Made by a program: the position numbers and the translations under genes | Notes under the pieces: model-generated | Told to the model about the DNA's origin: nothing | Databases searched by the model: none | Seen by the model: only the letters and a program-made list of their open reading frames with translations | Part shown: positions 48,386-53,437 of the stretch, piece after piece | How positions within the stretch are numbered: position 1 is the stretch's first letter | Layout: every line of letters begins with the position of its first letter | Assembly (NCBI GenBank): GCA_902770045.1 | Contig: CACXRO010000008.1 | Location: 1,412 to 65,411 of the forward strand | DNA from: an uncultured bacterium | GTDB taxonomy: Bacteria > Verrucomicrobiota > Kiritimatiellia > RFP12 > UBA1067 | Length of the DNA stretch: 64,000 bases | Reading direction: 5' to 3'

Positions 48386-48394
48386 ATTATACCA
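48386..48394 (-). promoter_or_regulatory. extended -10 promoter (TGGTATAAT)
   Basis: AAATTA-TGGTATAAT, 13 nt before the ATG at 48372. It overlaps the last codons of the DUF2851 gene. Confidence 0.5.
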
Positions 48395-49607
48395 TAATTT
48401 CGCCCCCAGCGGCAAAGACGGGCGGCGGATCTCCCAGCGAGCAGTCGGCGCACAAGGGATGGTGCGCAACGCAGAGCTCCCTGAAGAGGTGCAGCAGCCC
48501 CTGCACCAGCAGACCGTTGCCGGCGTAGAACGCGGCCGGGTTGTGGTCCCGGCCGAAGAGCCTGAAGGCCATTAGCCTCACCGGCTCCGAGATGTCCTCG
48601 GCCGGCAGCCAGTCCGGCGCGGCGTCGAGCCGCCCTTCCGCGACCGCGAACGGCACCACCACGTTGGCCAGCACCGCCGCCGCCCGTCCCGGGCCGATGA
48701 AGCCTCCGCCGCCACGGGACGCCGCCTCGCCGCGGCCACGCATCTCCGCCACCATCCCGCGGCAGCCACGACGCGAGAAGTCCGCCGCGTCGGCGAGCGA
48801 CATGGTGCCGGTCGAGGTGAAGACGTCCGCCGCCGCCGCCAGCCTGCGCTCGGGAGAGTTGTTCGGCCTCAGACAGCGGCGGTCCAGGTCCTCGAACGAC
48901 CCCGCGGCCAGAAGCGCGGCGCGGGCCGACGGCGGCTCGCGCGGCATCTCCGCGATCGGCACGCGCCCGGCGACGCGGCGGAACGCCTCCGCGTTGCGCG
49001 AGTACCCGAGCGCCGTCATCACCTCCTCGTAGAACACCTGCTCGCGTCCTCCGGCGCGGCTGGCGACCGCCTCGCCGAGCCGCCGCCGCACCCGCTCTGC
49101 CTTCGCCGCGAGCCGGCGGCGCCCGGCCTCGGCGAGAAGCGCCTGCGCCCGGTCCGGGTCGCCGCCAAGCGCGCGCGAGCAGGGACGCTCCTCGCCTGGA
49201 AGCCGGTCGTAGGGATATGCCGCGAGGTCGATCGCGTCAGCCGAGAACGCCGGGTTGGCGAGCGCGAAGCGCCCGAGCCAGATCGACACCGCGCCCGGCG
49301 GCAGCGAACGCGCCTCGGGACCGCACCCCCAGGTCACGTGGGCGACTACGCTGCGGTAGTTCGGGTCGGCGCCGTGCCCGTGGCGGTCCCAGTCCGCAGG
49401 GCGGATGTGCACCTCGACGTCGCCGACCACGCGGCGGCGCTCGGGTCCGAGCTCGAGCACCGCGCCGGTGAAGTCTGGCCCCGGGCCGAGGTTCCACTCG
49501 CCGGGACTCACCACCTCCACCGGAGTGCCGCGGCGGGTGGCGAGGCGCTTCGGACGCAGCGCCGCGTCGTACCACACCGCCTGGACGTGCCTCTCGGTGA
49601 TGTCCAT
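48387..49607 (-). CDS. DUF2851 family protein
   Basis: 406 aa. The N-terminus ERHVQAVWYD...G.W.LGPGPDF..A....G.....GDVEVH...DW..HGH is typical of DUF2851. Confidence 0.65.
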   Translation of the reverse strand: MDITERHVQAVWYDAALRPKRLATRRGTPVEVVSPGEWNLGPGPDFTGAVLELGPERRRVVGDVEVHIRPADWDRHGHGADPNYRSVVAHVTWGCGPEARSLPPGAVSIWLGRFALANPAFSADAIDLAAYPYDRLPGEERPCSRALGGDPDRAQALLAEAGRRRLAAKAERVRRRLGEAVASRAGGREQVFYEEVMTALGYSRNAEAFRRVAGRVPIAEMPREPPSARAALLAAGSFEDLDRRCLRPNNSPERRLAAAADVFTSTGTMSLADAADFSRRGCRGMVAEMRGRGEAASRGGGGFIGPGRAAAVLANVVVPFAVAEGRLDAAPDWLPAEDISEPVRLMAFRLFGRDHNPAAFYAGNGLLVQGLLHLFRELCVAHHPLCADCSLGDPPPVFAAGGEIMV

Positions 49608-49617
49608 CGCCGCCTCC

Positions 49618-50631
<1,014 letters not shown>

Positions 50632-50649
50632 TCTTGTTCTCCTTTCCTT

Positions 50650-51084
50650 TTACTCCCAGCGCACGAAGCGGCCGCGGCGGGCGAAAAGATCCACCTTGCG
50701 GATGTGGTCGATCACCGGCCTGCCGCCCTCCGGCACGCCGTAGATCTCGATGACGTCGAAGCGGTAGCCGCCGCGCCAGCGGTTCGCCCGCCGCCAGGCG
50801 TTGCAGGCCCGGCGCAGGTTGACGCGCTTGCGGCGGTCGACGCTGCGGAGCCGGCGCGCGTAGGGCGAGAGCGTCGCGTGCTGCTTCACCTCGACGAACA
50901 CCATGGTGTCGGTCGAGCGCTCCCAGGCGACGATGTCGATCTCGAGCCGCCGGTCGCGCGCCGACGGGCGCGAGTTGCGGTCGACGATCACGAATCCGCC
51001 GCGGCGGAGGAATTCCGCCGCGACGTCCTCGCCCCAGCAGCCGTGTGCCGCCGAGACGCTCGCCTCCTCACGCGGCCGCGGCAT
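50650..51084 (-). CDS. yraN: YraN family (UPF0102) endonuclease-like protein
   Basis: GEDVAAEFLRRGGFVIVDRN....EIDIVAWE..TMVFVEVK...RFDVIEI. Overlaps the upstream gene by 17 nt. Confidence 0.75.
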   Translation of the reverse strand: MPRPREEASVSAAHGCWGEDVAAEFLRRGGFVIVDRNSRPSARDRRLEIDIVAWERSTDTMVFVEVKQHATLSPYARRLRSVDRRKRVNLRRACNAWRRANRWRGGYRFDVIEIYGVPEGGRPVIDHIRKVDLFARRGRFVRWE

Positions 51085-51664
51085 CGACGGCCTCCTTTCC
51101 GCGCCTTGCCGCGGCGGACTCGGCCCGCTCCGCCGACGCCGTCTGCGCCATCGGGATGCCGAAGCAGATTACCGTCATCGAACCGCACACCGCCTCGGTC
51201 AGCCCGAGCGCCTCGGCCGGCGAGAAGAAGAACCGCGAGGACGTCTCCTGTCCGCCCGGCAGGGTGCGGTAGAGGTCGAGCGAATAGCCGACGATGGGCT
51301 CGACGAGGTGGCGGAGCGTGATGCGCGTCTGGCCGCAGCCGGCGCGGTGGAAGAGCCCCTGTCCGTCGCCGATCGACTCGCATTCGCCGCGGAAGACCTG
51401 CAGCATCTGGCAAAGGTCGGTGAAGCCGAGCTTGACGACGATCTTGTTCTCCCAGTCGAAGCGGGCGTACGTCGGCGTCGGCGCGCGGCGGTCGCCGACC
51501 GCGCTCTGTCCGGCGATGGTGAGCATGATGCACCCCTCCGAGTCGTCCGTCGCCGGCAGCAGCTCGAGCCTGACGGCGCTGCCGGTGCCGCGGGCGTTGG
51601 GGTGGTAGAGCGCGAGCTTCGGACGGTACGCGCGGCTCTCGGTCTGGTTTCCTGTTGTGTTCAT
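51068..51664 (-). CDS. hypothetical protein with Whirly-like (ssDNA-binding) sequence pattern
   Basis: 198 aa. By eye it aligns with plant Whirly: YRPKLAL (YKGKAAL), ARFDWENKIVVKLGFTDLCQML (RQYDWSRKQVFSLSVTEIGSII), GLFH (EFFHDP) and FFFSPAEALGL (IYIPVTKAEFAVL). Confidence 0.4.
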   Translation of the reverse strand: MNTTGNQTESRAYRPKLALYHPNARGTGSAVRLELLPATDDSEGCIMLTIAGQSAVGDRRAPTPTYARFDWENKIVVKLGFTDLCQMLQVFRGECESIGDGQGLFHRAGCGQTRITLRHLVEPIVGYSLDLYRTLPGGQETSSRFFFSPAEALGLTEAVCGSMTVICFGIPMAQTASAERAESAAARRGKEAVDAAAA

Positions 51665-51730
51665 CCTGTATTTCCTTTCCTTTGGTGTTGTTGTCCTTTC
51701 GTTCCGGCGCGGCGGACCTCGCCGCCCCGG

Positions 51731-53278
51731 TCAGATCCAGTAGGAGTTCTCCGCGCCGTCGAGGTGGCGCATCCTGAGCGCGGCGTTGATGTGCTCCTCG
51801 CCGACCGCCTCCTCGCCGTCGAGGTCGGCGCAGGTGCGCGCGACCCTGAGCACCTTGTCGTAGGCGCGGGCGGAGAGCCCAAGCCGTTCGATCGCCCTGA
51901 CGAGCCGGTCGCGGTCGGCGGAGGAGAGCCGGCAGACGTCGGCGAGGTCGCGGCTCTTCGCCTCCGCGTTCGTGTACACGCCGGCGACGCCGCGGTACCG
52001 GGCCGCCTGCACCGCGCGCGCCGCCACCACCCGCGCGCGCACCGCCGCGCTCGATTCGCCGCGGCCCAGGGTCGGCAGTCGCGCGGCGTCCACCGGCGGC
52101 ACCTCGATCTGGATGTCGATGCGGTCCAGGAGCGGACCCGACACGCGGCTCTGATACTTGATGATGGCCGACTGGCTGCAGCGGCAATGGCGGCGCGGGT
52201 CGTTGAAGTAGCCGCAGGGACACGGGTTCATCGCCGCGACGAGCATGAACTTGGACGGGAAGTCGTGCGCGGCGGCGGCGCGGGAGACGCCGACGTGGCC
52301 GTCCTCGAGCGGCTGGCGGAGCACCTCGAGCGCCGAGCGCGGAAACTCGGCGAACTCGTCGAGGAAAAGGACGCCGCGGTGCGCGAGCGACACCTCGCCC
52401 GGCACCGGCTTCGCGCCGCCGCCCAGGAGGCCAATCGAGCTCACGGTGTGGTGCGGCGCGCGGAACGGGCGCGAAGTGACGAAGGTGCCGGCGCACTTCT
52501 CGCGCCCGGCCACGGAGTGGACGCGCGACACCTCCAGCGCCTCCTCCACCGTGAGCGGCGGCAGGATGGACGGAATCCGCCGCGCGAGCATGGTCTTGCC
52601 CGAGCCCGGCGAGCCGATCATCAGGATGTTGTGTCCGCCGGCGACGGCCACCTCGATCGCGCTCTTCGCGTCCTGCTGGCCCTTCACGTCCGCGAAGTCG
52701 TCGCCCGCGTCGCTGTTCTCGCGGATGAGACGGGAGAGGTCGTTGCGGCGCGGCTCGATGGCGCGCTCGCCGTTCAGGTACTGCACCGTTTCCTGGAGCG
52801 TCCGCACCGGGATGATGTCGATCCCCTCCACCACGCTCGCCTCGTCGGCGTTCTCCTCGGGCACCAGCATCGCGCGTCGGCCGATGCGCTTCATCTCGAG
52901 CGCCATCGGCAGCACCCCCTTCACCCGACGGATCTCGCCCGAGAGCGCGAGCTCGCCGGCGAAGGCATAGTCGTCGAGGCTCTCGCTGAACACCTTGCCC
53001 GTCGCCTTCAGGAGCCCGACCGCGATCGGCAGGTCGTAGACCGGCCCCTCCTTCTTAACGTCCGCAGGCGCGAGGTTGACCGTAACGTCCAGCTCTTTGC
53101 GGGACGAGAGGCCCTGGCTCTTGAGCGCGGTGGGGATGCGGTCCTTCGCCTCCTTCACCGCCTGGTCCGGGAGGCCCACGATCGCGAACTGCGAGTTCCC
53201 CAGGGTGGAGAACACCTCGATCTCCACCGTCCGCGCCTCCACGCCGCTCACCGCGGCCGAATAGCATTTTGCCAGCAT
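51731..53278 (-). CDS. comM: Mg-chelatase-like AAA+ protein ComM/YifB
   Basis: N-terminal Lon-protease-like domain (DLPIAVGLL), Walker A GSPGSGKT, Walker B VLFLDEF and a C-terminal ChlI-type domain. Confidence 0.9.
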   Translation of the reverse strand: MLAKCYSAAVSGVEARTVEIEVFSTLGNSQFAIVGLPDQAVKEAKDRIPTALKSQGLSSRKELDVTVNLAPADVKKEGPVYDLPIAVGLLKATGKVFSESLDDYAFAGELALSGEIRRVKGVLPMALEMKRIGRRAMLVPEENADEASVVEGIDIIPVRTLQETVQYLNGERAIEPRRNDLSRLIRENSDAGDDFADVKGQQDAKSAIEVAVAGGHNILMIGSPGSGKTMLARRIPSILPPLTVEEALEVSRVHSVAGREKCAGTFVTSRPFRAPHHTVSSIGLLGGGAKPVPGEVSLAHRGVLFLDEFAEFPRSALEVLRQPLEDGHVGVSRAAAAHDFPSKFMLVAAMNPCPCGYFNDPRRHCRCSQSAIIKYQSRVSGPLLDRIDIQIEVPPVDAARLPTLGRGESSAAVRARVVAARAVQAARYRGVAGVYTNAEAKSRDLADVCRLSSADRDRLVRAIERLGLSARAYDKVLRVARTCADLDGEEAVGEEHINAALRMRHLDGAENSYWI

Positions 53279-53323
53279 CTTTCTACGTTCCTTTCCGCCC
53301 TCCAGTCCGGGAGGACGGTGCGT

Positions 53324-53332
53324 AGAATAGCA
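53324..53332 (-). promoter_or_regulatory. extended -10-like promoter (TGCTATTCT) for comM
   Basis: GGCG-TTT-TGCTATTCT, leaving a leader of about 40 nt with SD GGAAAGGAACG. Confidence 0.35.
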
Positions 53333-53346
53333 AAACGCCGGAAATC

Positions 53347-53414
53347 GAACCTTAATGGAACCTTAATTGAATCTAAAGACGAATTTAGATTCGCTTAAGG
53401 TTCCATTAAGGTTC
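53347..53414. promoter_or_regulatory. 68-nt nested palindrome: (GAACCTTAA)x2 ... GAATCTAAA-GACGAA-TTTAGATTC ... (TTAAGGTTC)x2
   Basis: The 20-bp outer arms are exact reverse complements, and so are the 9-bp inner arms. The palindrome lies exactly 14 nt from each of two divergent extended -10 elements. Confidence 0.7.
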
Positions 53415-53428
53415 AGCGTCGGGAAATC

Positions 53429-53437
53429 TGGTATACT
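53429..53437 (+). promoter_or_regulatory. extended -10 promoter (TGGTATACT) reading into repeat copy 2
   Basis: AAATC-TGGTATACT. No plus-strand ORF lies downstream; the element starts 45 nt later. Confidence 0.45.

Follow-up and report, generated by a model that had tools for sequence, protein, structure and literature searches.

A Whirly-type protein encoded between comM and yraN in gut Kiritimatiellia

We analysed a stretch of 64,000 nucleotides (nt) from an uncultured Kiritimatiellia bacterium (contig CACXRO010000008.1 of assembly GCA_902770045.1; hereafter the window) and focused on one of its genes, here called X, which encodes a protein of 198 amino acids (aa) between comM and yraN. From its fold and homology alone, X very probably belongs, as a bacterial representative, to the Whirly/MRP branch of the PC4-like superfamily. 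In gut and rumen Kiritimatiellia it is a fixed chromosomal gene, which keeps its place between the same two neighbours, overlaps the start of yraN, evolves under purifying selection and has a host-like composition; these X genes form one clade within a large family found in prokaryotes and phages. We propose that X acts as a single-stranded DNA (ssDNA)-binding accessory of the machinery by which ComM, YraN and RecA handle displacement loops (D-loops), a reading to which we assign a probability of roughly 0.55.

Fold and remote homology of X

The X open reading frame occupies positions 51068-51664 on the minus strand; in its product, which begins MNTTGNQTESRAYRPKLALYH, the core covers approximately residues 13-172, and the C-terminal tail (residues 173-198) is modelled with low confidence. 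An initial annotation, made by eye from the sequence, had described this frame as belonging to no obvious bacterial family, and Pfam, NCBIfam, PHROGs and a sequence search of the PDB indeed contain nothing that matches X above threshold; a direct sequence search in 50,697 deposited phage genomes gave no match either. An AlphaFold2 model built from an alignment with 42 homologues reaches a mean predicted local distance difference test (pLDDT) score of 85.3 and a predicted template-modelling score of 0.75, with the core above a pLDDT of 90. Its topology is β4-α-linker-β4-α in a single chain: the first repeat consists of strands at residues 16-21, 29-36, 45-55 and 75-79 and a helix at 81-91, and the second of strands at 104-108, 111-120, 126-134 and 140-147 and a helix at 149-168. 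The model thus has the two ββββα repeats and the two four-stranded antiparallel sheets of the Whirly/MRP fold, whose β4-α-β4-α layout has been described as the ‘type I’ PC4-like arrangement of Whirly and MRP proteins (PMC7549692).

When this model was searched with Foldseek against 350,542 PDB chains, ranks 1-17 were all taken by Whirly and MRP proteins (Arabidopsis WHY1, WHY2 and WHY3, potato PBF-2 p24, StWhy2 and Trypanosoma MRP1 and MRP2), with a probability of 1.00, E values of 1.3e-7 to 3.7e-5 and target-normalised template-modelling (TM) scores of 0.63-0.77. Human Pur-alpha comes next at an E value of 9e-3, and the remainder is noise. Because 17 chains fall between 1e-7 and 4e-5 and significance then drops sharply, the resemblance to Whirly proteins is beyond chance. 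In a library of viral structures, the best match to X is a phage protein labelled ‘Whirly transcription factor’ in UniProt (E value 7e-8). The structural comparison suggested with the initial annotation therefore came out in favour of a Whirly assignment, with Pur-alpha as the nearest other fold.

Profile searches also point to this branch, through matches that are weak but exclusive to Whirly and MRP and through a transitive link. Among 43 close homologues compared with Pfam, five match Whirly and three match MRP weakly, and 9 of 123 family representatives match Pfam Whirly at E < 0.01. One member, P0249, passes the Pfam Whirly threshold (25.9 bits, profile positions 28-133 of 136) and at the same time matches the X-family profile with an E value of 3e-35. 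Searched against the whole PDB, the 123-sequence profile retrieves three sequences only at E < 10, namely MRP1 (E value 0.0049) and two StWhy2 entries, and hhalign aligns the same profile with StWhy2 over 97 columns (E value 2e-4). A profile of the close clade, searched against the PDB, returned only noise (isoamylase, SDO1 and coatomer). The recurrent weak match of 27 residues around the FDW motif to Pfam Coatomer_b_Cpla was treated as spurious.

The block-by-block alignment with plant Whirly proteins drawn by eye in the initial annotation holds up in these comparisons. HMMER pairs FDW.n..vkL of the X family with YDWEKRQLFAL of StWhy2, and s.aEAlgL with TTAEFAVM, hhalign arrives at the same register, and the G.FH of the X family is paired with EFFH; in the X model, the by-eye blocks map to β1, β3, β4-α1, β5 and β8-α2. 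On or next to strands, 11 aromatic or histidine and 8 basic positions are conserved. Judged on its sequence, X is a genuine remote homologue of Whirly and MRP proteins, and not a member by the curated rule of Pfam. X most likely binds single-stranded nucleic acid; the conserved aromatic, histidine and basic positions, the acidic tails of some relatives and the recombination context, both described below, are indirect evidence for this.

A conserved place between comM and yraN

In the window, comM (51731-53278, 515 aa; Pfam ChlI, Mg_chelatase and Mg_chelatase_C, E value 2e-94) lies directly upstream of X and yraN, also known as UPF0102 (50650-51084, 144 aa; full-length Pfam UPF0102 match, E value 6.5e-18, and NCBIfam YraN models), directly downstream, followed by recA (49618-50631, 337 aa; Pfam RecA, E value 8e-127, plus RecA_C) and a DUF2851 gene (48387-49607, 406 aa; Pfam DUF2851, E value 4.9e-31), the last co-oriented gene. 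These Pfam matches and coordinates agree with the gene order given in the initial annotation, and the 17-nt overlap it reported between the X stop and the yraN start is exact (51068-51084, minus strand); we read this overlap as translational coupling. All five genes are on the minus strand, separated by gaps of 66 nt (comM-X), 18 nt (yraN-recA) and 10 nt (recA-DUF2851), in none of which we found promoter- or terminator-like sites. The sole terminator-like match on the minus strand falls inside comM, and such matches are fewer than expected from shuffled sequence.

Going by sequence, ComM is an MCM-type branch-migration helicase of natural transformation and YraN is a PD-(D/E)XK ssDNA endonuclease, the latter function being taken from PMC13663708. 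The ComM translation contains the Walker A motif GSPGSGKT and that of YraN the LEIDIV...FVEVK (EID...EVK) signature, and both proteins have full-length Pfam matches, so that the window encodes an intact ComM together with an intact YraN. Since the GC content at third codon positions (GC3) of X is 0.92, like that of the neighbouring host genes, and the remainder of the window consists of housekeeping genes, X is a resident chromosomal gene rather than a recent insertion. DNA of the window occurs in bovine gut metagenomes.

Scanning one genome per prokaryotic species yielded 57 X loci, nearly all of them in rumen or gut metagenome-assembled genomes (MAGs) of Kiritimatiellia/Kiritimatiellota. The arrangement comM-X-yraN is kept in roughly 50 species-level genomes: comM lies directly 5' of X at every locus with enough flanking sequence except three (L059, L060 and L061), and yraN lies directly 3'. 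An overlap between X and yraN is present in 51 of 53 distinct loci and measures exactly 17 nt in 35 of them. At most loci recA follows yraN; in L001/L018 the recA of the operon is short, with 275 aa and no C-terminal domain. DUF2851 is found downstream in at least 31 related loci, four of which have no recA. Typical identities to the proteins of the window are about 55% for X, 63% for YraN, 72% for ComM and 80% for RecA. X diverges faster than the neighbouring proteins and is under clear purifying selection: in 13 pairs, the ratio of non-synonymous to synonymous substitution rates (dN/dS) is 0.08-0.40. Of the 53 comM-linked X proteins, 50 form one weakly supported cluster in a maximum-likelihood tree, the other half of which holds the phage-borne members.

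A few loci depart from this pattern. At L059 (4926-6077) and L060 (2815-3965), X sits beside yraN with gaps of 128-135 nt, comM is absent and a two-component system lies upstream. These two X proteins are nested with phage members, outside the main chromosomal clade (Shimodaira-Hasegawa-like approximate likelihood-ratio support of 96), and reflect either a second acquisition of X beside yraN or its replacement in place; such an arrival next to yraN argues for a functional tie between X and YraN. In L061 (4989-5405), from a Verrucomicrobiota MAG with neither comM nor yraN nearby, homology covers only the N-terminal half and is followed by unrelated arginine-rich sequence, so that this is probably a frameshifted or decayed copy. 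L033 and L057, two loci whose titles point to other phyla (Faecalibacterium sp. CAG:74 and a Rikenellaceae MAG, respectively), carry a typical Kiritimatiellia-type X, in L033 with the complete comM-X-yraN-recA-DUF2851 set, and most likely represent errors of MAG binning or labelling rather than horizontal transfer.

The C terminus of X reads -AAAA, a stretch encoded where the gene overlaps the yraN start. Among 59 chromosomal orthologues, 39 end in -AA-COOH and 25 have a DT[ST]xY motif in the tail, which is absent from the subclade of the window. We considered an ssrA-like degron at the -AA terminus and dropped it, as it is inseparable from the constraint imposed by the overlapping yraN start codon.

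Positions 50407-53437 are covered at roughly 97% identity by a gut metatranscriptome contig of 3,177 nt, which spans comM in full, X, yraN and the beginning of recA; other RNA-derived libraries cover X in pieces. The contig is compatible with a polycistronic mRNA. Upstream of comM, a nested palindrome of 68 nt (53347-53414, no strand assigned) with an inverted-repeat structure is built from four exact TTAAGGTTC units, compared with 0.05 copies expected in the window. It lies 50-110 nt 5' of the comM start, just before the -10-like sequence TGCTATTCT, and is a candidate operator of the operon; it is kept at the same place in L005-L007 only.

At the other end of the operon, the DUF2851 protein may belong to the same machinery as X, ComM and YraN. 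Its AlphaFold2 model (pLDDT 84.9) combines a large helical domain with an N-terminal β domain, which bears an invariant GDVEVH...H.H motif, and carries a Cys/His cluster (C379, H383, C386 and C389) in its C-terminal part. Compared with PDB folds, the model has no significant match (best E value 1.2); the helical domain resembles that of AGOG glycosylase with a probability of 0.23, and a nuclease or glycosylase fold was dropped as an assignment.

The wider prokaryotic and phage family

A profile search that exhaustively covered 1.84 billion representatives places X in a family of 672 clusters (at 50% identity) with E <= 1e-3, of which 169 reach E <= 1e-30; none of the members carries an existing Pfam or PHROG annotation. 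The bacterial homologue of Whirly postulated in the initial annotation is thus a homologue, but not an isolated one, being a single clade of a large and partly phage-borne family. Distant members of approximately 155-175 aa are found in phage-like contigs, alongside an SU10 portal gene, runs of small open reading frames and phage-only PHROG families. A scan with a tight sub-alignment detected four members on IMG/VR viral contigs of 48-70 kb, where they adjoin genes for PcfJ-like, amidoligase and DUF2800/PD-(D/E)XK nuclease proteins. Much of the family therefore resides on phages and mobile elements.

Five of 150 representatives (P0176, P0177, P0191, P0209 and P0237) end in an acidic stretch followed by a PF-COOH tail (AEPF, AMPF, ELPF, PMPF and DVPF), where well under one would be expected by chance. 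The DDDIPF tip of the bacterial ssDNA-binding protein (SSB) recruits partner enzymes, and these acidic tails resemble it. By analogy, some proteins with a Whirly fold may serve as hubs in the manner of SSB, coating ssDNA and recruiting partners. The tails support an SSB-like role for the family, as do the PcfJ-like and DUF2800/PD-(D/E)XK nuclease genes near phage copies.

A sister chromosomal clade (L072-L076), the one with SSB-like tails, lies among housekeeping genes, with neither comM nor yraN nearby. At a distance of 115-130 nt upstream, its members invariably have the gene for a conserved helical protein of about 167 aa (EVYKRAH.DRKLFSKIRSD) with no Pfam match, the pair spanning L072:5378-6618, L073:5382-6618 and L074:5372-6639. 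We considered the helical protein as a paralogue in an MRP1/MRP2-like pair and rejected this, as it is not a paralogue.

A proposed role at the D-loop

Natural transformation in Legionella, Acinetobacter and Vibrio requires YraN, an ssDNA endonuclease of relaxed specificity that has co-evolved with ComM, a helicase with which it also interacts (Hardy et al., PNAS 2026, PMC13663708). Together, the two extend and stabilise the D-loop made by RecA by nicking the displaced strand; as YraN cuts any ssDNA, it needs to be directed to that strand (PMC13663708). In this published two-component system ComM is recruited by DprA, and neither an ssDNA-binding partner nor a gene between comM and yraN is described (PMC13663708). 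On the plant side, WHY1, WHY2 and WHY3 stimulate strand exchange by the bacterial-type RecA1, RecA2 and RecA3, unlike canonical organellar SSBs, and work together with the branch-migration helicase RadA (preprint 10.64898/2026.10.24.761589).

For X, we infer ssDNA binding, an oligomeric state, contacts with ComM, YraN and RecA and a role at the D-loop along the following lines. X would be transcribed with comM, translationally coupled to yraN and made in a fixed proportion to YraN, and it would act at the D-loop that RecA makes during natural transformation or recombinational repair. While ComM extends the loop, X would coat whichever single strand is exposed, the incoming one or the displaced parental one; like plant Whirly proteins acting with bacterial-type RecA, this coat would stimulate strand exchange, and it would stabilise the intermediate. 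X may further offer the displaced strand to YraN, or protect the incoming one from this nuclease. A bolder version, which we regard as less likely than not, makes X a third subunit of ComM/YraN, a clamp of the Whirly type on ssDNA that marks the displaced strand for YraN, or holds it, and enhances strand exchange by RecA, and the prokaryotic and phage family of ~670 clusters the source of organellar Whirly proteins. Other parts of the organellar DNA machinery are phage-derived.

Several observations weigh against the proposed accessory role or the homology beneath it. X scores 13.8 bits on Pfam Whirly (PF08536; E value 0.052), below the gathering threshold of 23 bits, and the hhalign probability is only 47%, obtained with a single-sequence StWhy2 template. 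The short phage-type members stop right after α2 and hence have no second C-terminal helix, and the SSB-like tails belong to a clade other than that of X. X is mildly acidic rather than basic (isoelectric point 6.3). In the KGKAAL motif on β1, the second lysine drives assembly of the 24-mer in land-plant Whirly proteins, and this motif is not kept: X has YRPKLAL at the site, the Kiritimatiellia clade has the consensus YRPKLxFYH, and the wider family retains only P.L..YH. Algal Whirly-like proteins lack KGKAAL as well (PMC9070903). The metatranscriptome contig could stem from contaminating DNA, and most bacteria run ComM and YraN without X, so that X is no universal requirement. Finally, recA is missing between yraN and DUF2851 in L035, L039, L042 and L047, and the operon copy matches poorly (32-56% identity) in L025, L040 and L043. 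Of the comM-X-yraN-recA arrangement noted initially, the first three genes have thus proved to be the conserved part, and recA the part that is missing from the operon in some lineages. With recA absent or divergent in several lineages, the link of X to RecA is weaker than those to ComM and YraN, which are its firmest genomic partners.

Other functions can be envisaged for X. It could guard or regulate YraN, binding the nuclease or sequestering ssDNA so that YraN stays inactive except at a ComM-bound D-loop, in an immunity-like pairing whose stoichiometry would be fixed by translational coupling, and would then not be a stimulator of recombination. The link between X and yraN, with its recurrent overlap, is the tightest at the locus, a xenologous X is again found beside yraN without comM in L059 and L060, and a nuclease with so little specificity needs targeting; yet most bacteria tolerate YraN without X, no nuclease inhibition by a Whirly fold is known, and both the sister chromosomal clade and the phage members occur without yraN, which leaves this function unlikely in our view. 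We give slightly less credence to X being a general alternative SSB or nucleoid-associated ssDNA binder, a former phage SSB that would serve replication and repair at large and whose position in the comM operon would be an accident of its capture. Such an origin would suit a family that is largely borne by phages and mobile elements, that has SSB-like acidic ...PF tails in some members, and whose sister clade lies among housekeeping genes with no recombination context. However, X itself has no SSB-like tip, and the strict comM-X-yraN order with its coupled overlap is kept across proteins that are only 43-60% identical, which argues that the order is under selection and no accident.

MRP1 is the best PDB match to the sequence profile, MRP1 and MRP2 are among the top fold matches, and three close members weakly match Pfam MRP, all of which would be expected if X bound RNA or, like MRP1/2, acted as an annealing matchmaker for complementary strands and not as a passive coat. 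As its context is DNA recombination only, and its likeness to MRP is no greater than that to plant Whirly proteins, we hold this to be improbable. About equally improbable, if not marginally more so, is a role of X in regulating transcription of its own operon, as a factor or autoregulator of the PC4/PBF-2 type that binds melted or single-stranded promoter DNA: Whirly and PC4 proteins were first described as transcription regulators and the 68-nt palindrome lies 5' of comM, but that palindrome is of a duplex type and kept only in the closest relatives, whereas X is kept far more widely, and regulators are rarely coupled translationally to a mid-operon enzyme gene. That X has no host function and is a phage remnant, decaying or selfish, as its relatives in phages might suggest, is contradicted by the selection and synteny data, with the dN/dS values and host-like GC3 given above, an intact and syntenic gene in about 50 species and its presence in RNA-derived libraries, and is highly improbable.

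The Whirly/PC4-like fold, its ssDNA binding, single-repeat bacterial relatives and a few phage proteins automatically annotated as Whirly are already known. In the searchable literature we found no counterpart for a large family, in prokaryotes and phages, of Whirly-type proteins with two repeats, for a chromosomal Whirly clade fixed in a comM-yraN-recA operon, or for a third component of the ComM/YraN system. Whirly proteins are still called plant-specific, which hundreds of prokaryotic and phage clusters, one of them past the Pfam threshold, would change if our assignment is true. As an ssDNA-binding accessory, X would be a concrete candidate for aiming YraN at the displaced strand, in a ComM/YraN pair defined only in 2026; it would also offer a route to the evolutionary origin of organellar Whirly proteins and, in the bacterial operon, a simpler system for studying how Whirly proteins cooperate with RecA and a branch-migration helicase.

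Among known systems, plant Whirly proteins (WHY1/2/3, StWhy2 and PBF-2 p24; PF08536) share with X the double β4-α unit in a single chain, alignable elements (F/YDW before β4, α1, G.FH at the start of β5 and AE..L in α2) and a neighbourhood of bacterial-type RecA and a branch-migration helicase. They are basic whereas X is acidic, the identity is 16-19%, and X has neither KGKAAL nor an organelle-targeting peptide; X shares an operon with ComM and YraN, both of which plants lack. The plant proteins form tetramers and 24-mers, and the tetramer of Whirly and MRP proteins, homomeric or heteromeric, has a whirligig layout. The trypanosome proteins MRP1 and MRP2 (PF09387) likewise have a Whirly-type fold (fold matches at E values of 1e-5) and provide the best profile match in the PDB; they bind guide RNA as a heterotetramer in mitochondrial RNA editing, whereas X has a DNA-recombination context and no adjacent paralogue. 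YdbC/DUF2128, SP_0782, Borrelia Pur-alpha (Foldseek E value 0.45 against the X model) and the N-terminal domains of Shedu type 1A belong to the superfamily of X and have in common with it the β4-α unit, with proven or proposed ssDNA binding, but such bacterial PC4-like half-domains are single repeats that dimerise (‘type II’), and X carries both repeats in one chain (‘type I’). The OB (oligonucleotide/oligosaccharide-binding)-fold SSB, with its DDDIPF tip, has a fold unrelated to that of X; no SSB domain in X is matched by Pfam or NCBIfam, its fold being that of Whirly and not an OB-fold, and the acidic ...PF-COOH tail of a subset of the family is absent from X itself. Relative to the ComM/YraN D-loop system, finally, the window encodes intact ComM, YraN and RecA, and where the published system has two components, the X locus has an extra gene, placed between those of the two interacting partners.

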